A DNA stretch of 64,000 bases from a bacterium (GCA_040390065.1 JAZJZE010000009.1:160001-224000); one strand, 5' to 3'. Shown: positions 22,522 to 59,450, counted from the stretch's first letter. Notes: generated by a model not told the origin, from the letters alone. Numbers and translations are program-made.

Positions 22522-23844
22522 ATGGACGTCGACGCAGCGTACATCCCCGACCTCGCCGCCGCCCTCGCGTTGACAGGCCTCGGGGCCTGGGTGGTTGCAA
22601 TCGACGTCAAGCGCCGCCTGCATCGCGCCTTCGGCTTGCTGATGTTCGTCTTGGCCTTTACCGTGCTGAATTTTGTCTTCGCGTTGCGCGGCAACCTGGC
22701 CCAGTCCCTGTTCGTCTACGGTTGCCTTGCGACGCCGTTTGCCCTGGCCAACTTCGCCCTCGTCTTCTGGCGTTCCTACGGCGAGCGCCGCCCCGGACCG
22801 CCGGCCCCTTGGTGGCGATTGGCGCGTTGGATGCTACTGGCGGGTGCACTCGCGGTGGGCGGCCTGTACGCGCAGGACGCCACCTTGTGGGATGGCTGGC
22901 TCGGCGTGTTCATCGTGATTGGCCCGGCCACCGGCGCCGCCGTGGCTTTCGGCGTCGGCTGGCATTACCTGCGCATGCCGTCGGGCCAGAAACGCGACGC
23001 CCTCTTCCTCTTCGCCCTCGGATTCATCCTCGACCCGGCCTTCTACGTGGGGAGCCGGATTGCCGGCTGGTCGTGGACTGCGGACGCAGCCCAGACCACA
23101 GCCATCAGCATCGCCGCCCTCGCGGTGCTGCTCGTCCTGGTGCTTGCCGTCCTGTTTGCATACGGGGCGCGCAAGTCGGACCGCCACGCCCGCCGACAGG
23201 CATGGGCCCTCGGCGTCCTTTCGCTCACAGCCATCCTCACCGGGGTCGCCGTCGCCCTCATCCCGGCACACAGCCACGGGGCCTTCACCACGAGGCTGCA
23301 TGCGGTCCTCCTGCACACGATCGGCAGCGCTTGGCGCCTGACGTTTGCCGCGCTCGCTGCCTACTCCATCATCCGGTACTGCCTGTTCACCCTCAACCCG
23401 CGCTTCCGCCGCCTCGTGCGCGAGACCGGAATGGCCGCAGCGCTTGGCGCGACCCTGTTCATCTCGGAGCAGTTGCTGCAGCAGTTCGTGCAGGACAAGA
23501 TCCCGACGGCCACCATCGGCGGCGGACCTGCGTGGATCCTGGCGTGGCTCGGGGCGGCCGGAGCCGTCGCCATGGTCTTCTTCCCGGTCCACAAGGCCTG
23601 CAGCCGGCTGGCGTTGCGTGCCGCCCCGGCGGGACGAAGCCGCGAAGACCACGAGCGCCACTGTGTCGAGATTTACCGCGCAGCCCTCAACGCCGCGCGT
23701 CAGGACGGCTTCATCTCACCGCAGGAGCGTTCGGCGCTGCATCGCCTCGCAGATAACCTAGGGCTCGCGCCGAAGCAGGTGCAGGTCATCGAATCCGCAT
23801 CCGGCCCAGACGAGGAGCCCATGCGCCTGCCCACGATGGCGTAG
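22522..23844 (+). CDS. Paralogue of 20615-21937 (multi-TM plus TerB-like tail)
   Basis: RLHRAFGLL; YSIIRYCLFTLN; YRAALNAARQDGFISPQERSALHRLADNLGL. Confidence 0.75.
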   Translation: MDVDAAYIPDLAAALALTGLGAWVVAIDVKRRLHRAFGLLMFVLAFTVLNFVFALRGNLAQSLFVYGCLATPFALANFALVFWRSYGERRPGPPAPWWRLARWMLLAGALAVGGLYAQDATLWDGWLGVFIVIGPATGAAVAFGVGWHYLRMPSGQKRDALFLFALGFILDPAFYVGSRIAGWSWTADAAQTTAISIAALAVLLVLVLAVLFAYGARKSDRHARRQAWALGVLSLTAILTGVAVALIPAHSHGAFTTRLHAVLLHTIGSAWRLTFAALAAYSIIRYCLFTLNPRFRRLVRETGMAAALGATLFISEQLLQQFVQDKIPTATIGGGPAWILAWLGAAGAVAMVFFPVHKACSRLALRAAPAGRSREDHERHCVEIYRAALNAARQDGFISPQERSALHRLADNLGLAPKQVQVIESASGPDEEPMRLPTMA

Positions 23845-24548: not shown

Positions 24549-25337
24549 ATGCACCCCCTTCGAGCCTTGGCCCCTCTCCTGGCCATCCTCCTCGCCCCAG
24601 CGGCCTCCGCCGCATTCGTCTCCGAGGTCGCCGGCGGCGACACCGACAACGGCATCGCACTCGTCCTCCAGCACGCCGCCTTCACCTTCATCGACGGCAA
24701 CGCCAATGGCCACTTGGACTCGGCCGCGCCCCGCGAACCCATCTACTTGGACCTGGACGCGTCGGGGACCGTCACGTACGGCGACGAACGGCTGACGCCC
24801 TTTGGCCACTACGCAGGCCACACGCAGGTGGACCTGACGGACGCGGACGCAGGCCGTGCGCTTGCGGCGGCGCCGGGCTGGTTCGCGCGCAGCAATGCCG
24901 GCTGGGTCGCGGACCTCGACAATTCCGGGACCCTCACGGCGGGCGACCTGCGCCTCGGCGCCGATGGCGCCACACCAATTGCCACAGCGCAGGCCACGGG
25001 CGAAATTCTGCGCGTGCAGGGCACGCCGGGAACGCTCTTCCACATGGGGCAAGGCGCGTCGCTCTACCTGGACACCGACTCTTGGACCGCGGGCGGCGGC
25101 CAGGTCAGCCCCGGGGACGTGCGCATCATTGCGGGCCCGTTTGCGACTGAACCCGTGGCGCCGCAGCCACCGGCCTCGCCCGTCCCGGCGCAGGATAGCA
25201 CGCCCGCAGCAACGGCGCATCAAGCGGCCGATTCGTGGCGCTCCCTCGACTGGGTCCTCGTCGGCCTCGCCGTCGCGAACCTGGCGGGGCTTGCCATGCT
25301 AGCCAAGGCGCAACGGCCCAAGAACCCGTTCAAGTGA
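24549..25337 (+). CDS. Secreted membrane-anchored protein with DxDxxG..GDxRL (Ca-binding-like) repeats
   Basis: Signal peptide; DLDASGTVTYGDERL, DLDNSGTLTAGDLRL and SPGDVRI; C-terminal TM helix. Confidence 0.75.
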   Translation: MHPLRALAPLLAILLAPAASAAFVSEVAGGDTDNGIALVLQHAAFTFIDGNANGHLDSAAPREPIYLDLDASGTVTYGDERLTPFGHYAGHTQVDLTDADAGRALAAAPGWFARSNAGWVADLDNSGTLTAGDLRLGADGATPIATAQATGEILRVQGTPGTLFHMGQGASLYLDTDSWTAGGGQVSPGDVRIIAGPFATEPVAPQPPASPVPAQDSTPAATAHQAADSWRSLDWVLVGLAVANLAGLAMLAKAQRPKNPFK

Positions 25338-25339
25338 AA

Positions 25340-25389
25340 TGGGGAAGATGGGAGTTGAACCCACGACCTGGGCATGATGAGTGCCCCGC
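25340..25389 (-). repeat. Duplicated 3' 50 nt of tRNA-CAT
   Basis: Matches 25543-25592 except for one base in the anticodon loop. Confidence 0.9.
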
Positions 25390-25393
25390 GAAT

Positions 25394-25500
25394 CTGCAAA
25401 CAGGTCGATCATTTCCGTCGTGCGGCGCTCGCTTCGCTCGACCGCGACCTGCAAACAGGTCGATCATTTCCGTCGTGCGGCGCTCGCTCCGCTCGGCCGC
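25394..25500. repeat. Tandem repeat, two units with 55-bp period
   Basis: ctgcaaacaggtcgatcatttccgtcgtgcggcgctcgctYcgctcgRccgc at 25394 and 25449. Confidence 0.9.
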
Positions 25501-25542
25501 ACATAGGCGCTCGACACTTCCGTCGTCGACCAGGGAATGCAG

Positions 25543-25616
25543 TGGGGAAGATGGGAGTTGAACCCACGACCTGGGCATTATGAGTGCCCCGCCCTAACCA
25601 GCTAGGCCACTTCCCC
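25543..25616 (-). tRNA. tRNA with CAT anticodon (elongator Met or Ile2)
   Basis: Cloverleaf; anticodon arm GGGCA-CTCATAA-TGCCC; GGTTCAAC T-loop; CCA not encoded. Confidence 0.9.
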
Positions 25617-28678: not shown

Positions 28679-29165
28679 CCAACGGGCGATTCCTCCTTTG
28701 CTCCGACGGCGGCGGAACACAGATTGCGACGAATCCGTCATGACACGCGCGTAGGCCCCCGGCCGGGGCGAGCTGGTATTGCAAGCGCCTCGGCGCGAGC
28801 ATGCCAGGGGTCGCGGGGGCCGGCAGGCCCCCCGGCGGGGGGAAACGGGCGGGGGGCGGCAGCCCTCCGCCGCGATGTCGCGAGGCGAAGCCGAGGCAGG
28901 ACATCGCAAATGATCGACCTGTTTTCAGGTCGCGCGAGGGCCACCGCGGGCCTGAAAGACCCGGAGGCCGCGGAAAAAACCGGAAAGCGACCTTTCCAGT
29001 CCTCGGCGACTTCGCTGTCTTTCAGGCATCGGCGGCCTGGGAGAACCGGAGACGACGGGAGAACAGGAACTCATTCCCGTTCTCTCCACTGGATTCCTGT
29101 TCTCCCAGGCCTCCCACACCCAGCCACGCGGCCACCCAACCTGCGCCGCCGCCATCGCAGGTTGA
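28679..29165 (+). repeat. Modular structured intergenic element, copy A
   Basis: Five anchor motifs shared in order with 31660-32095 and (inverted) 57700-58155; nested hairpins. Confidence 0.8.
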
Positions 29166-33252: not shown

Positions 33253-34905
<1,653 letters not shown>

Positions 34906-34950
34906 GGGTTCCCCATGTGGCCGCGGCTTAGAAACGTGTGCGCCCAAACC

Positions 34951-35145
34951 CTAGCGACTGACGGGCATCTCATCGGCGACGTTCCTGCCGGTTCCGCGGA
35001 CCTTCCGCGCGGAGTGCACGACCGCGTCCTTGGCCCGCTCCTTCGCCTGGTCGCTCAAGACGTAGCGCCAAATCACGTAGCCCGCGCCGATGGCCGCCAG
35101 CGTACCAATCGCGACGTACAGTCCAGTATGGGATTTCTCGCCCAT
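34951..35145 (-). CDS. Small single-TM protein
   Basis: MGEKSHTG, then a TM helix and charged tail. Confidence 0.6.
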   Translation of the reverse strand: MGEKSHTGLYVAIGTLAAIGAGYVIWRYVLSDQAKERAKDAVVHSARKVRGTGRNVADEMPVSR

Positions 35146-35209
35146 GGCCCGACAAGCCGGCCGTGCCGAATCAACGTAGGGTTGGCGGCAGCGTACCCAG
35201 CCCCGGCAA

Positions 35210-35368
35210 TCACTTTTCCCGCTTCGCTTGGGTCTTGGGGAGCCGGCGGCGCGGTCGGATGAATCGCAGGTAGACGTACAGTGCAGAGGCAACGGCCAAC
35301 GCCACGCCGCCCCACAGCAGCCAGTCGTGCAGCGTGTGGTCGACGCCGCCAGAGTCGTGGTTCGTCAA
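35210..35368 (-). CDS. Small single-TM protein
   Basis: TTG start inferred; WLLWGGVALAVASALYVYL plus basic tail. Confidence 0.45.
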   Translation of the reverse strand: MTNHDSGGVDHTLHDWLLWGGVALAVASALYVYLRFIRPRRRLPKTQAKREK

Positions 35369-35387
35369 GCCAATCGACGCGGGCAAA

Positions 35388-35495
35388 TGGGGTGAGCCGG
35401 GATCGAGGCCACTGGCCTCCGGCCAGCGGCCATACGCGGCCCCGAAGGCCTCGCGCAATCCCGGCTCAGCCACAGCCTCGCTGCGCATCGGCAAG
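35388..35495. mobile_element. Mini-element at the tRNA-Phe 3' end (19-bp duplicated end, 89-bp insert with internal antisense block)
   Basis: tggggtgagccgggatcga at 35388 and 35496; inverted atcccggctca at 35458-35468. Confidence 0.65.
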
Positions 35496-35568
35496 TGGGG
35501 TGAGCCGGGATCGAACCGGCGGCATCCAGATCTTCAGTCTGGCACTCTCCCAACTGAGTTACCACCCC
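35496..35568 (-). tRNA. tRNA-Phe(GAA)
   Basis: Anticodon arm CCAGA-CTGAAGA-TCTGG; GGTTCGATCCC; TTCAAATA about 30 nt upstream. Confidence 0.95.
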
Positions 35569-35677
35569 GGGAGACAGGTCGCGCGACAAGTCCGCTCTAT
35601 TTGAAACGCAGGGTCTCGCGCGAGGCGCAGCCGAGCGCGAACGCGGGGTGCAGGGGCGCGCAAGGCGACGGGGGGCC

Positions 35678-37390
35678 TCAGGAGGTGACCGTGAAGGGCA
35701 CGACGACGTCCTCCTTGACCACGGGCGGGTCGGAGATGGACACGGTGGCGTTGCCGGTTCCGGAGCCGGTCCACAGGATGCCGGTGACGGACCAGATGCC
35801 GTCGGCCACCGTTGCGTCGCGGGCCGGCTCGGGGGCTGCAGCGCCGGGCATCTGCAACGTCACGGACACGCAGGAGGCGCGCCCGCAGGTGTTGTTCTCC
35901 AGGGGCGATTCCGCGCCGTCGTCGGCGATGCGTTTGATGGACAAGGTCAGCGTCGCCGTGGCGCCTTGCCTCGGCGCGGAGTCGGCCATGAGCGTGACGG
36001 CGAAGTGTTCGCTGGAGGCCACGGTCTTGTAGCCGGCCGGCGCCGCCGTCGCAGCCAGAGGGGGCGAGACGGAGGTCAGGATGCCCGCGAGCAGGAGCAC
36101 GGCGATGCCAAGGCTCGCCTCGATGGCGACGGTGCGGCGAAGGTGGGTGCCGTCGGCCAGCCCCGCGCGAACCCGGCCGCGGGTGCTCCGCTGAACGACT
36201 TTTTGCACGGTTCCGGCCAGGCCGTCGTCGCGCGGCGCCTCGAGTAGCACGTACCGGTTGATGCCGGCCAGAGCGACCATGACGATGGCGATGGCCACCT
36301 TCCCGATGAGGGCGGCCCCGTAGGCGCTCTGCACGAGGCGCAGGGGATGCAGGAGGCTGTCCAGGCCCAGGATTGTCACGGAGAGCGTGACGCCGGCGAC
36401 GGCGAGCAGGAAGACCGACGTGAGCGCGAGTGTCCCGAAGCGCACGCCCGTGCGTTGCAGCGCATCGGGCGGCTCGCTCGAGCGCCGCAGCATCATGGCG
36501 AAGAGCAGCAGCCCCCCGACCCAGACTGCCGCCGAGACGAGGTGGACGAAGTCGATGACCATGAACGAGATGCCGGCGCCGGAGACGTGCCCCAGACGTG
36601 CGGAACCAGCGGCGGCGCCGAGCAGGAGCGCCGTCACGGCCCAAGGGCCGGTGCGCGTCGGGCGAGCCATGGCCAACGCGGCAAGGAGGAGAGCGCCGCT
36701 GCCGAGGATGGCGCGGGCCATGTAGACGCGACCTGCGCCTTCGGGCGAGCCGATGTACACGCCGAAGCTTGAATGCGTGGCGTGCCAGGCCTGCCAGAAG
36801 ACGAGCAGGGTTCCGACGAAGTGCAGCCCAGACCCCAACAGCATCGCGCGCGCCGCACTACGCGGGGGATACGCCGGAAGCCAGGCGAGGAAGGCGGCGG
36901 CCGCGAGTCCCAGGCTGAAGCCTGCATAGAGAAGTGCACGGCCCAGGGCGGATGCCCAGTCGACGTCGTTGACGCTCTGCCTGGATGACGCCGGCGCGTC
37001 GTAGGCGCCGATTGCGAAGCCGTACGTTTCGACGTTGGGGTGGCCATCGACACTCGAGACCGCCGTGAACGACAGGACGTACTGGCCGGGCGGTAGCGGC
37101 GGAAGGTACACCGTCATGCGCGGCGGGTCATGCTCGATCAACGGCGAGCCACTGTCGACGCGGGCATGGCTCGTGTTGTTCTGGACGTCGATCCTGGAGG
37201 TGGAGACGTCGATCTTCTGGCTGAAGGTCAGGACGAACTGCGTCGGCAGCGCGTCCAGGTGGGGCCGCTCGTTGATAGGCGGGTCGATGGACAAGAGGTC
37301 GGCGTGTGCCGCGGCTGCCGGGACGACGGCCAGCAGGATTGCGCAGGCAAGCAGGCCGCACAGAGCCCGCCAAGGGGCGCCGCGCCTCAT
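35678..37390 (-). CDS. CopC/CopD fused copper uptake/resistance protein
   Basis: Mature N-terminus HADLLSIDP, SSVDGH (CopC); GHVS, HLVSAAVWVGGL and YGAALIGK (CopD). Confidence 0.9.
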   Translation of the reverse strand: MRRGAPWRALCGLLACAILLAVVPAAAAHADLLSIDPPINERPHLDALPTQFVLTFSQKIDVSTSRIDVQNNTSHARVDSGSPLIEHDPPRMTVYLPPLPPGQYVLSFTAVSSVDGHPNVETYGFAIGAYDAPASSRQSVNDVDWASALGRALLYAGFSLGLAAAAFLAWLPAYPPRSAARAMLLGSGLHFVGTLLVFWQAWHATHSSFGVYIGSPEGAGRVYMARAILGSGALLLAALAMARPTRTGPWAVTALLLGAAAGSARLGHVSGAGISFMVIDFVHLVSAAVWVGGLLLFAMMLRRSSEPPDALQRTGVRFGTLALTSVFLLAVAGVTLSVTILGLDSLLHPLRLVQSAYGAALIGKVAIAIVMVALAGINRYVLLEAPRDDGLAGTVQKVVQRSTRGRVRAGLADGTHLRRTVAIEASLGIAVLLLAGILTSVSPPLAATAAPAGYKTVASSEHFAVTLMADSAPRQGATATLTLSIKRIADDGAESPLENNTCGRASCVSVTLQMPGAAAPEPARDATVADGIWSVTGILWTGSGTGNATVSISDPPVVKEDVVVPFTVTS

Positions 37391-46384: not shown

Positions 46385-47461
46385 GTGGCGGATGCGTCGA
46401 CACAGCCGGCCGGGCAAGGCCCGTCGACGCCGCAGGGCAACGCGCGCAGGTGGCAGCGCCTTCTCCTGCGCACCATCCTGGCCGAAATCGCCGTCATCCT
46501 CGTGCTCTTCGCCCTGCGCAACGTGGCCTGGCGCGACGTTCCAGGATACCTCGGCCGACTGGGCCCGGCCACACTCGGGCTCGCGGCCCTCGCCTACACC
46601 GCGGCGTGGACCATGCGCATCGCGCGCCTGCACGTTCTTGCCAAGGCGACGGGCATCCCGCTCGGCGCCCGGGACGCGGCGCAGACGGCCCTCGGAGCCA
46701 ACGCCCTCAACATCGTGGCGCCGGCCCGTCTCGGCGACGTGGCGGCCTACGTGCACCTGCGCAGCGAGGGAGCCGCCGGACCGGAGGCCGCCGCAGTCAT
46801 GGTGACGTGGCGTCTTGGCGACCTGGGCGCGCTCCTCGTCTTCGCCCTGCTTGCGGGACCGGTCGTCCTCCTCCTGGTACCCGTGCACAGCGCAACCACC
46901 GGCCTTGTTGCCGTGATGGCTGGCGGCGCGGGTTTCCTTGCAATCGGCGCCGCGGGCATCTACCTTGCCCGCCATCACAAGGTGCGTGCCGTCCTCGACC
47001 GCATCGCGACCCGCCTGCTTGGCTCCCGCGCGCCGACCGGAGCGGCCTTCGGGAGAGCGACGGCGCATCTCTGGACCCCCCGCCTCTTTGCGGCCAGCCT
47101 CGCCTTGGCCATTGCCGCCTGGATCGCGGACGCCCTTCTGGCCGGCGTCATCCTCGATGCACTGTGGGATGGGCCCAACGCCTACGCCGTCGTCATCATC
47201 CCCGTCATCCTCGCCAACGCCGCCAAGACCCTGCCCACGACGCCCGGCTCCATCGGCGTCTTCGAGGTCGTCTTCGGCGTCGCGCTCAACCAGTACGTCG
47301 GTGACCCAGCGTCGGCCGCGGTGTTCGGGTTTGCCGCCGTCGCGGTGCATCTCTTCGTCAACGTCCTGACCCTCGGCCTCGGCCTGCCCGGCGCCGTGGC
47401 CATCGGCCGGTCCGTGTCGCGCTCTGCGGCGCGTCAAGCCGATGCGGGCCTGACCAAGTAG
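46385..47461 (+). CDS. Lysylphosphatidylglycerol-synthase TM / flippase-like protein
   Basis: NIVAPARLGD and LPTTPGSIGVFE motifs. Confidence 0.85.
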   Translation: MADASTQPAGQGPSTPQGNARRWQRLLLRTILAEIAVILVLFALRNVAWRDVPGYLGRLGPATLGLAALAYTAAWTMRIARLHVLAKATGIPLGARDAAQTALGANALNIVAPARLGDVAAYVHLRSEGAAGPEAAAVMVTWRLGDLGALLVFALLAGPVVLLLVPVHSATTGLVAVMAGGAGFLAIGAAGIYLARHHKVRAVLDRIATRLLGSRAPTGAAFGRATAHLWTPRLFAASLALAIAAWIADALLAGVILDALWDGPNAYAVVIIPVILANAAKTLPTTPGSIGVFEVVFGVALNQYVGDPASAAVFGFAAVAVHLFVNVLTLGLGLPGAVAIGRSVSRSAARQADAGLTK

Positions 47462-57699: not shown

Positions 57700-58155
57700 A
57701 GGGCCGCGTGGCCGGCTTCCGCGCCGGCTTAACCACTGAGTTCACTGAGCGCACTGAACGCGCCGCGTCCGTAGTTCAGTGAATTCAGTGCGTTCAGTGG
57801 TTCGCCCCTCGGCCGAGTGTGGGGGGCCGGGGAGAACAGGAGCCTTGCGCAGAGAAGGGGAATGAGTTCGTGTTCTCCGTTTGGCTCCCGTTCTCCCAGG
57901 CCGCCCATGCCTGAAAGACAGCGAAGTCGCCGAAGCCTGGAAAGGTCGCGTTCCGGTTTTTTCCGTGGCTTCCTCGTCTTTCAGGCCCCCCGGCGGCCCT
58001 CGCCATCGCTGCGCTCGGCTCGCCAAGCCCTCGCTTCACCGCGGCTTCGCCGTCGGCGTGCTCGCCCCGGCCGGGGGCTGGCAGGCCATCGGTTGCATCT
58101 GTTGCATCGGTTGACCCGGCGTGGACGTCGCCGCCGTCGGAGGAGATTGGGGACG
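57700..58155 (-). repeat. Modular structured intergenic element, copy C (inverted)
   Basis: Anchors at 58129-58142, 58060-58078, about 57985-58002, 57815-57905 and 57702-57712. Confidence 0.8.
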
Positions 58156-58185: not shown

Positions 58186-58304
58186 CTACGCGCCCTTCAG
58201 CAGGTTGTTCGCGATGACCCCGCGGCCCGGCAAGCCGAGCCGCAGGGATTCCGCGGCCGAGCCGGCGGCATCGCGACCAATTCTCTGCGGGCGACTCGCT
58301 TCGC
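58186..58304. mobile_element. Mini-element at the acyl-CoA dehydrogenase 3' end (34-bp recoded duplicate, 85-bp insert with antisense block)
   Basis: 58186-58219 and 58305-58338 both encode [10 protein letters not shown]-stop with different synonymous codons; inverted block at 58269-58281. Confidence 0.7.
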
Positions 58305-59450
58305 TCATGCGCCCTTGAGAAGATTGTTCGCGATGACCATCCTCTGGATCTCGCTCGTCCCCTCGTAGATCTCCGTGATCTTGGCGTCACGGAAGGCCCG
58401 CTCGACGGGGTAATCCTTCGTGTAGCCGTTGCCGCCGTGCACCTGGACGGCCTCCGTCGCAGTCCACATCGCCGTCTCCGAGGCGTACACCTTGGCCATG
58501 GAGGCCTCCTTGGAGTACGGCTTCTTCTCGTCCTTGAGGCGGGCTGCGCGATGGATGAGAAGGCGGGCGGCGTCGATGCGCGTCGCCATGTCGGCGATCT
58601 TCCATTGGATGGCCTGGTTGGAGCCGATGGGTTTGCCGAATTGGCGCCGCTGCTGCGCGTACGACAGGCTGGCCTCGTAGGCCCCGACGGCGATGCCGAG
58701 GGCTTGGCTTGCGATGCCGAGACGGCCGCCGTCGAGCGTCTTCATGGCGACCTTGAAGCCCTCGCCGACGGGCCCGAGGACGTTCTCGTCCGGCACCTGC
58801 ACGTTTTCGAAGAACAGCGGACAGCAGGGCGCGGCGCGGATGCCGAGTTTGTCCTCGGGTTTGCCGATGCGGAAACCGGGCGTGCCCTTCTCCACGAGGA
58901 ACGCGGTCTGGCCCTTGTGCCCGGCCGCCTTGTCCGTCTGGGCGAAGACGACGTACGTCTCGGCGAGTCCCGCATTCGTGATGAAGAGTTTCTGGCCGTT
59001 GAGGACGTAGCCGCGGCCGCTCTTGGTGGCCGTCGTCTGCATCGACACCACGTCGCTGCCGGCGTTGGGTTCCGTGAGTCCGTACGCGCCGAGCTTGCGG
59101 CCGGCGAGCATGGGCTTGAGGAAGCGTTCATGCTGGTCCGCGTTGCCGTACGTGTAGAGGGGCCAGCCGGACAAGGAATTGTTGACGGAGACGATGACGC
59201 CGGTCGAGGCGCAGACGCGCGACAGCTCCTCGATGGCGATGCAGTACGACACCATGTCCGTGCCCGCGCCGCCGGCCTCTTCGGGGAAATTCATTCCCAT
59301 GATGCCGAGGGCGCCAAGCTCGTGCGCCAACTCGGGTGGCCACCGGTGGGTCTCGTCCATCTCCTTGGCGATGGGGCGCAAGCGGCGCTCGGCGAACTCC
59401 CGCACGGTCTGGCGGATGAGGGCGTGCTCCGAGGTGGGCTCCAGGTCCAC
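58305..59450 (-). CDS. Acyl-CoA dehydrogenase
   Basis: [32 protein letters not shown] and [10 protein letters not shown] motifs. Confidence 0.95.

Follow-up and report, generated by a model that had tools for sequence, protein, structure and literature searches.

Introduction

Tyrosine-recombinase elements that target tRNA genes carry their own copy of the gene end, so that on integration the element-borne tail replaces the gene tail and the native tail is displaced, with identity extending from the T loop to the end of the gene; tandem units at one site and empty sites in sister genomes are further marks of this class. The same marks were found for a set of short inserts in a Thermoplasmata soil archaeon (genome of 2.68 Mb, 67% G+C, 50 contigs, 89% complete), among them the insert behind the tRNA-Phe(GAA) gene in a stretch of 64,000 nucleotides (GCA_040390065.1, JAZJZE010000009.1:160001-224000; this whole stretch is the window referred to below, and positions without a contig name are counted from its first letter). 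The inserts differ from the known tRNA-targeting elements in measuring 76-142 bp between the copies, without an integrase or any other gene, and in showing one homologous scaffold for about 20 targets, with an internal inverted copy of the attachment sequence. On balance, these units probably make up a family, not described before, of miniature integrative elements that are gene-less, non-autonomous and hardly more than an attachment site each.

Several other described systems come close to these units. Cis-mobilizable elements (CIMEs) retain attL and attR without an integrase and derive from integrative and conjugative or integrative and mobilizable elements; they are decayed, of kilobase scale and have a recognisable parent. 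The units resemble CIMEs in being gene-less DNA between two attachment-site copies, with possible mobilisation in trans and tandem accretion, but they form a uniform structured module of about 100 bp for which no parent was found. Integron attC and CTX-phi attP(+) are recombination sites formed by folded single-stranded DNA. An imperfect inverted repeat of 50-70 nt that could fold duplex-like is common to both of these and to the stretch T-a-T' predicted here, where T is the gene tail, T' its inverted copy, a the segment between T and T', and b the hairpin segment after T'. In the units, however, the stem copies a different host gene end in each element and not a fixed dif/attI-type site, no integron integrase or Xer protein reaches the family cut-off in this genome, and the units are known from assembled sequence alone. 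IS110/IS1111 elements use a bridge (seek) RNA with separate target and donor loops, and share with the units a structured non-coding segment in which a target-complementary stretch varies from copy to copy where the targets differ; the units are smaller by a factor of about ten, are not accompanied by a DEDD transposase gene among those found in the host genome, have their 18-34 nt target present twice and hold a single complementary block. MITEs (miniature inverted-repeat transposable elements) and REP/REPIN (repetitive extragenic palindromic) sequences are likewise small, non-coding, hairpin-rich, multi-copy and non-autonomous, whereas the units lack terminal inverted repeats and a target-site duplication of fixed length, enter gene ends with a replacement copy instead of intergenic DNA, and have no Y1/RAYT-type gene among those found in the host.

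In the full texts searched, which exclude most subscription journals, integrative units of about 100 bp that contain an inverted copy of their attachment sequence were not described. A preprint on tycheposons (10.1101/2020.12.28.424599) reportedly deals with the fragments that large elements leave behind. Such fragments are also the subject of PMC9897764, and in the text of an archaeal tyrosine recombinase review covered by a term search (PMC8371274) the words hairpin, single-stranded, miniature and non-autonomous are absent.

The tRNA-Phe Insert

The tRNA-Phe(GAA) gene is intact and in use (35495-35568, minus strand; called by ARAGORN and matched by Rfam RF00005 with 65.6 bits). Read in the sense of the tRNA, its in-use T is followed by 23 nt with GCGCAGCGAG, a 14-nt T', two GC hairpins and a second T. 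A preliminary description of the locus, made from the DNA alone, had reported a duplicated 19-nt tail around an insert with two hairpins and an antisense block, and the individual parts hold up. The 19-mer has exactly two matches in the window (35388-35406 and 35496-35514), against 0.10 expected from shuffles and two or more in 0/100 of them, and the direct repeat extends to 25 nt with one mismatch (35382-35406 and 35490-35514, spacing 108), leaving 83-89 bp between the copies and a whole repeating unit of 108 bp. The in-use T (35490-35514, minus) runs from the T loop to the discriminator and six nucleotides of trailer. It is adjoined by segment a (35472-35494, minus), which on the evidence of sequence, alignment and fold is the apex of an imperfect T-a-T' palindrome and holds GCGCAGCGAG at 35477-35486. 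The T' that follows (35458-35471, minus) was recovered as an inverted repeat of 14 nt at 93% complementarity, slightly degenerate and including the perfect 11-mer at 35458-35468 that had been described; its distances of 51 nt to the displaced copy and 27 nt to the in-use copy agree with the earlier ones, and T' as a whole complements the 3' strands of the T stem and of the acceptor.

Both hairpins of segment b are predicted in minimum-free-energy folds with RNA and with DNA parameters. Hairpin 1 (about 35434-35454, minus) has a GC stem with a TTCG-type loop; hairpin 2 (35407-35431, minus), also supported by RNAalifold, has an 11-bp stem, lies just before the displaced copy and is the conserved hairpin of the family. 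The displaced T (35382-35406, minus) is the native tRNA tail, as indicated by the direct repeat and by empty sites in three relatives (L009, L011 and L013), in which the flank that follows the displaced T in the host stands directly after tRNA-Phe. On the integrative reading, the in-use T would be the insert-borne copy.

The 10-mer CTCGCTGCGC at 35477-35486, which the preliminary description had singled out, is not significant by itself (2 matches in the window against 1.04 expected, with two or more in 29/100 shuffles) and owes its relevance to being the form that the family motif GCG(A/C)AGCGAG takes at this locus. Its second match, at 46759, is unrelated and inside a coding sequence, and a 14-nt repeat at 23324/23437 is equally unrelated and inside coding regions. 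A repeat search of 34800-36100 detected no terminal inverted repeats, the only inverted pairs being the internal T'/T ones. No integrase gene fits inside the tRNA-Phe unit, and the single frame of at least 80 aa listed across the insert (35210-35494, minus) continues through the displaced copy into the flank, which encodes a conserved small protein in the sister genomes.

A Family of Units behind Gene Ends

In the host genome, 52 tRNA genes were called by ARAGORN, and a copy of a tRNA 3' end was accepted when the last 20 nt were matched with at most 3 mismatches. At eighteen of the 52 genes the 3' end recurs 76-183 nt downstream, with two copies at five of them, and no upstream copy was found among the 52 apart from the Tyr duplication viewed from its other member. 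Four of the calls (C5:286289-286380, C5:309585-309680, C11:39983-40069 and C13:35430-35526) are probably false, being 87-97 nt long with atypical 3' ends, and the true occupied share is therefore nearer 18/48. Two further loci were noted beside this count. At tRNA-Ala(CGC) (G000:C1:415566-415700), a clear a-T'-b module is present, with T' matching at about 20/22 positions by eye; this unit is probably old, its displaced tail having decayed past the search threshold. At tRNA-Leu(CAA) (G000:C6:18053-18226), the first 36 nt of the gene are duplicated 138 nt upstream, a copy of the 5' end and not of the 3' end.

At 14 of the 18 duplicated tRNA loci, as classed by the author through inspection and BLAST, and at the acyl-CoA dehydrogenase gene, the insert belongs to one module, termed family A. 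Its order is T, a, T', GGATTYGCCGAG, hairpin 1, a GAGGAAT-like spacer, hairpin 2 and T, with segment a measuring 17-51 nt and usually containing GCG(A/C)AGCGAG, and with insert lengths of 76-142 nt. The identity with the tRNA covers 18-28 nt (median 20) and is 18-20 nt in 11/18 units, so that its start lies in the T loop. The length of the duplicated tail is not fixed, amounting to 18-28 nt at tRNAs and to 30-34 nt or more at protein genes. The units are downstream of the gene and co-oriented with it in every case.

The homology of the scaffold is evident from direct comparisons. Over 75 nt, the insert at Leu-TAG shares 80% identity with that at Glu-TTC, with the differences mostly in the 9-nt T' core and in T and only scattered point differences elsewhere, and the inserts of Leu-CAG, Arg-CCG and Gln-CTG are 77-78% identical in their 3' halves. 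A MAFFT alignment of 20 units displays the conserved motifs, and RNAalifold on this alignment gives hairpin 2 with 8 pairs and compensatory changes at all 8; the T':T helix was not recovered in the same way, as 1-nt bulges put T' out of register. The units are much more stable in fold than their shuffles (z of -1.6 to -7.9). With both DNA and RNA parameters, T-a-T' is predicted to form a long imperfect hairpin with the GCG(A/C)AGC motif at its apex; in an alternative fold, T' pairs with the displaced T and encloses the two hairpins, and the minimum free energy picks either about equally often.

A covariance model built from tRNA-linked units only, covering hairpin 2 and sequence without the T':T helix, was searched against the host and other genomes. 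Its counts are lower bounds, since the best 25-150 candidates were scored per genome, and its E-values are rough. In the host, 18 matches at E ≤0.01 were obtained (best 150 of about 6,200 candidates scored), three of them outside the training set, namely the dehydrogenase insert, a second Gln-CTG unit and a unit at C4:117718-117855. The dehydrogenase match (58200-58307; 39.9 bits, E 0.002) upholds the earlier proposal that the inserts form a family, and the equivalent layout that had been described there was found again. The acyl-CoA dehydrogenase gene (58305-59450, minus strand) has its last 30 coding nucleotides repeated at 90% identity (58190-58219 and 58309-58338) around an inverted block (58269-58286). 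The whole member (58186-58338, minus) consists of the in-use T with stop codon (58305-58338, minus), segment a with GCGAAGCGAG (58287-58304, minus), T' (58269-58286, minus), segment b (58220-58268, minus) and the displaced T with a stop codon of its own (58186-58219, minus). Orthologues in 5 other genomes are without the duplication, and their native ends resemble the displaced copy of the host. Just downstream of the displaced dehydrogenase tail, at 58087-58113, a 9-nt unit occurs three times (CATCGGTTG, CATCTGTTG, CATCGGTTG), and similar CAACCGATGCAACAGAT-type repeats were seen at G000:C2:86442-86615 and G000:C19:2625-2723.

With Rfam at E ≤1 in 16 sources, no family covered the inserts beyond sub-threshold matches, and the significant matches were the tRNA genes themselves. 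Most of the sub-threshold matches also overlie tRNA genes; tmRNA_permuted on L200 (E 0.98) extends about 50 nt into the unit, and mgtE on L194 (E 0.3) falls inside the Leu-CAG units. BLAST of the inserts against their own genome retrieved only other units and hairpin repeats. A strict scan for the motif plus complement returned 1 site and was too stringent.

Covariation of the Inverted Copy and Origin of the Tails

The preliminary description had claimed, on two examples, that the antisense block changes with the target. This was evaluated by a permutation test on 25 family A units (14 from the host, 6 from G005, 4 at tRNA-Phe of relatives and 1 from G017), in which, for all tRNAs of the set, T' was scored against the antisense of their final 14 nt, the conserved T loop being excluded. 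The sum of scores of T' with the cognate tRNA was 200, whereas the permuted mean was 156.6 (sd 6.0, maximum 185), and the observed value was reached in 0/20,000 permutations; a control with sense copies gave almost no signal (6.24 versus 5.70). T' thus covaries with T, homologous backbones carrying different blocks, and the claim is now established on a larger set. At tRNA-Phe of the host, T' has a cognate score of 12 against 9 for the best non-cognate tRNA. T' also follows species-specific variants of tRNA-Phe: genomes with GCTC in the tRNA have GAGC in T', and those with GTCC have GGAC. Several units have an inverted copy that spans the T arm and not the acceptor strand. The erratic placement of the block that local template switching might produce was not seen, as T' always lies just 5' of the conserved motif.

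The origin of the in-use tail could be followed in protein genes with duplicated ends (n = 6), in which the two copies differ in 4 and are identical in 2. The differences amount to 6 nt in the dehydrogenase, 2 at C1:41273, 2 at C9:577507 and 1 at C5:78736, a total of 11, and 11/11 are silent, including TGA versus TAG. The in-use tail is therefore a foreign allelic gene end and not a target-site duplication. Had the tail been duplicated in place and the dead copy then drifted, most of the differences should be non-silent; the pattern fits a tail that evolved while working in another lineage. In keeping the function of the gene in all 4 of these cases, the incoming end behaves like that of an integrative element. 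The units, at 76-142 bp, have no integrase of their own. Nine positions within T' are informative, the direct copies differing there; T' agrees with the in-use copy at 7 of them and with the displaced native one at 1, and matches neither copy at the remaining one. These small numbers suggest that T' co-evolved with the element's own T, as an intramolecular stem predicts.

As every unit has a T of its own, T' complements this internal copy as well as the target. An intramolecular T:T' hairpin predicts the same covariation, which is therefore no proof of a guide, and the covariation is most simply explained by a hairpin within the element rather than by a guide acting in trans. What remains of the reprogrammable targeting system put forward in the preliminary description is the modular, target-matched covariation in a mobile family; an enzyme guide gained no support, the hairpin with the element's own T being sufficient.

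Distribution and Turnover

Insertion polymorphism is visible at tRNA-Phe, where 12 loci were compared (that of the host and those of eleven relatives, ten from its own genus and one from a different genus). Sites are empty in 3 relatives (L009, L011 and L013), the tRNA being followed directly by the flank that stands after the displaced copy in the host; 5 relatives (L010, L012, L016, L017 and L018) have inserts of the same build but different from that of the host; and the remaining 3/11 have other sequence. Some of the inserts in relatives are in tandem and some consist of two different units in a row, so that tandem accretion accompanies turnover at this site. The proportion of occupied tRNAs varies, with units at 6/31 in G005 (same genus), 1/35 in G017 (another genus) and at most 1 doubtful case among 31 in G026 (another family of the order).

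With the covariance model, units were found in 13/32 genomes of the host's family, representing 5/11 genera (a lower bound), and in 0/119 genomes of other families of the class among the best-scored candidates of each genome. Among the genomes examined, family A is confined to one Thermoplasmata family. Each of the 13 matches inspected in other genomes either follows a tRNA tail or belongs to an array of units, and an upstream T is recognisable (at least 12/20) in 11 of them. A search of viral contigs with the pattern GATTYGCCGAG-N(4-30)-GCGAGGWAT yielded 14 stretches, 0 of which were confirmed by the covariance model. The same pattern gave at least 120 stretches in genome contigs, mostly from unrelated GC-rich bacteria; when the model was applied to 3 of these, L287 (three units) and L290, both metagenome-assembled genomes of Thermoplasmata/Thermoplasmatota, were confirmed and L255 was not.

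Recombinases and Larger Islands

The host has six tyrosine recombinase (PF00589) genes. In its 89%-complete genome, no Y1 transposase, reverse transcriptase or TnpB was detected, the search not extending to Cas1/casposase, and IS110-type DEDD (PF01548) had no match. One of the recombinases is located at tRNA-Lys(CTT) (G000:C4:105117-117855), where the order is a XerA-like recombinase gene (309 aa), about 12.5 kb, a 17-nt partial Lys tail, a family A unit and a second Lys tail; classical integration and mini-units therefore use the same site, and the locus looks like a classical island stacked on a mini-unit. At the ends of the 12.5-kb insertion, neither an a-T' nor a b module was discernible by eye. 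A candidate for a large genomic island was also noted at tRNA-Val(GAC) (G000:C11:33996-126105), where an exact 22-nt copy of the 3' end lies 92 kb downstream, 1.6 kb past the gene of a 466-aa tyrosine recombinase.

Proposed Mechanism and Alternative Explanations

As gene-less integrative units, the elements would measure about 95-170 bp including their own target copy, and would consist of a replacement T (the last 18-34 nt of the gene), an apex with GCG(A/C)AGCGAG, T', GGATTYGCCGAG and one or two GC hairpins. Entry would take place at the left edge of T, which in tRNAs is inside the T loop with its palindromic TTCGAA core, a sequence that all tRNAs share; the gene would be completed by the T of the element and the native tail pushed downstream as a dead copy. 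The reaction is envisaged as site-specific recombination catalysed in trans, most likely by a tyrosine recombinase, in which T' either pairs with its own T to give a folded, duplex-like attachment site of the integron attC or CTX-phi attP kind or provides an accessory site for binding in inverted orientation. Exchange at a folded site would leave the order seen after integration (hybrid site, loop, inverted copy, rest, hybrid site).

A number of observations weigh against this explanation. In the contigs assembled from the probable source run and from two others of that study, no free, circular or empty-site form came to light. All six recombinases stay below the cut-offs for archaeal XerA and integron integrase, the best XerA score being 157.8 bits against 220 (the 309-aa protein beside tRNA-Lys) and the integron integrase model giving at most 41.9 against 265, and no enzyme could be linked to the units among the host proteins searched. 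The cognate tRNA is not strictly the best match of T' in 17/25 units (it is so in 8/25), T' is more degenerate than the displaced copy, and the covariance model missed inserts that are visible by eye in G002 and G011. One recombinase for about 20 tails works only if the shared T loop is read, and a clear T loop is missing from the targets in protein genes; for mechanical reasons, double-stranded DNA of about 100 bp is unlikely to form a circle, so that a single-stranded or other intermediate must be assumed; and the joint gain of a new T and a matching T' by the scaffold is left unexplained.

The alternative closest to the preliminary description is guided, reprogrammable integration, in which T', as part of a transcript or single strand from the insert, would base-pair with the target gene end and so bring a recombinase there in trans, in the manner of the IS110 bridge RNA. 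A target-matched T' within a conserved scaffold is what such a guide would show, the many sequence-unrelated targets, protein genes included, are hard to reconcile with one sequence-specific integrase, and the units are strongly structured and co-oriented downstream of transcribed genes. This explanation is nevertheless considered improbable: intramolecular T:T' pairing gives the same covariation, T' sides with the insert-borne copy at 7/9 informative positions and is often degenerate with the cognate strictly best in 8/25 units only, IS110 DEDD, TnpB, Y1 and reverse transcriptase genes were not found in the 89%-complete genome, no Rfam family besides tRNA was matched, and insertion of IS110 type makes no target duplication of 18-34 nt. 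A doubtful variant regards the units as non-autonomous cargo of programmable recombination, T' pairing in a folded transcript or single strand both with its own T and with the identical chromosomal gene end and so aligning donor and target; the recombinase acting in trans would then need little sequence specificity, and a change of T and T' would retarget the unit to any gene end. To be doubted to a similar degree is an origin as CIME-like deletion scars, that is, remnants of large tyrosine-integrase elements that lost their interior and kept attL and attR with attP arms. Restoration and displacement of the tails match the classical attL/attR arrangement exactly, large insertions that bear an integrase occupy the same tRNA sites (tRNA-Lys-CTT, and tRNA-Val-GAC with its far copy 92 kb away), and the silent differences fit incoming gene ends borne by attP; yet more than 20 independent loci would all need to have shrunk to 76-142 bp with the same ordered scaffold, the 12.5-kb tRNA-Lys insertion is without a-T' or b at its ends, no parent was found (0/14 pattern stretches from viral contigs being confirmed by the model), and arrays of different units at one tRNA indicate repeated entry of small units.

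Still less likely is a functional RNA module, with T'-b-T as a minihelix- or terminator-like precursor structure serving 3' processing or stability of tRNA and mRNA and its spread being secondary. T' has the combined sequence of the 5' strands of acceptor and T stem, whereby T':T mimics the stacked acceptor/T helix, and the compensatory changes in hairpin 2 and the constant orientation with the gene would suit such a role; sister species without a unit at the same tRNA, the uneven occupancy among close relatives (6/31 tRNAs in G005 versus 1/35 in G017), tandem pile-up, the presence of the same module behind protein genes and the lack of a match to an Rfam family speak against it. Local replication errors, in which template switching or fold-back synthesis made the copies in place without a mobile element, have very little to recommend them as a source of the units, although the direct-inverted-direct order is the one expected of such events and the motif at the T-a-T' apex corresponds to the GCGAAGC mini-hairpin, which is very stable. 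Segments a and b are not local in origin, being homologous across unlinked loci and genomes, the protein-gene differences are silent in 11/11 cases, unlike the outcome of local duplication and drift, and T' is more diverged than the direct copy despite the equal age expected.

Other Inserts in the Window

A third case in the window, overlooked in the preliminary description, is the duplication at tRNA-Met(CAT) (25335-25616, minus strand), a related but different insert type termed family B. The tRNA-Met gene (25542-25616, minus) is followed by an insert (25390-25537, minus) made up of a 55-bp tandem unit and the hairpin GATCGACCTG-TTTG-CAGGTCG, and by a displaced 55-nt copy of the 3' half of the tRNA from the anticodon stem on (25335-25389, minus), the spacing of the copies being 203 nt. 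An antisense block was not found at this insert. Family B was recognised at 4 loci (Met, Asp, Tyr and Leu-GAG) and is characterised by a GTGGGGCC...GGCCCCAC hairpin and a GATCGACCTG-N-CAGGTCG hairpin, without an inverted copy. The hairpin motif GATCGACCTG-N4-CAGGTCG has 26 occurrences in the genome, with covariation in the stem (CCTG/CAGG versus CCTT/AAGG). A solitary family-B-like repeat at 28860-28935, with a GC hairpin and GATCGACCTG-TTTT-CAGGTCG, has no flanking direct repeat, and the family B module therefore also exists as a plain intergenic repeat.

Implications

If truly self-contained, the family A units, at about 100 bp, would be the smallest site-specific integrative elements known to the author. 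The exchange of T and T' within a conserved scaffold offers a compact natural system for how integration specificity is set, and if a guide or folded-site mechanism were confirmed, the units would be a candidate for programmable insertion. For the host, units at a third of its tRNA genes may shape tRNA precursors, gene 3' ends and annotation, the spare tRNA fragments being mistakable for genes, and they mark hot spots that are also entered by larger elements. If the proposed explanation is true, nothing more than an attachment site that contains its own inverted partner is required for persistence and spread as a parasite on gene ends.

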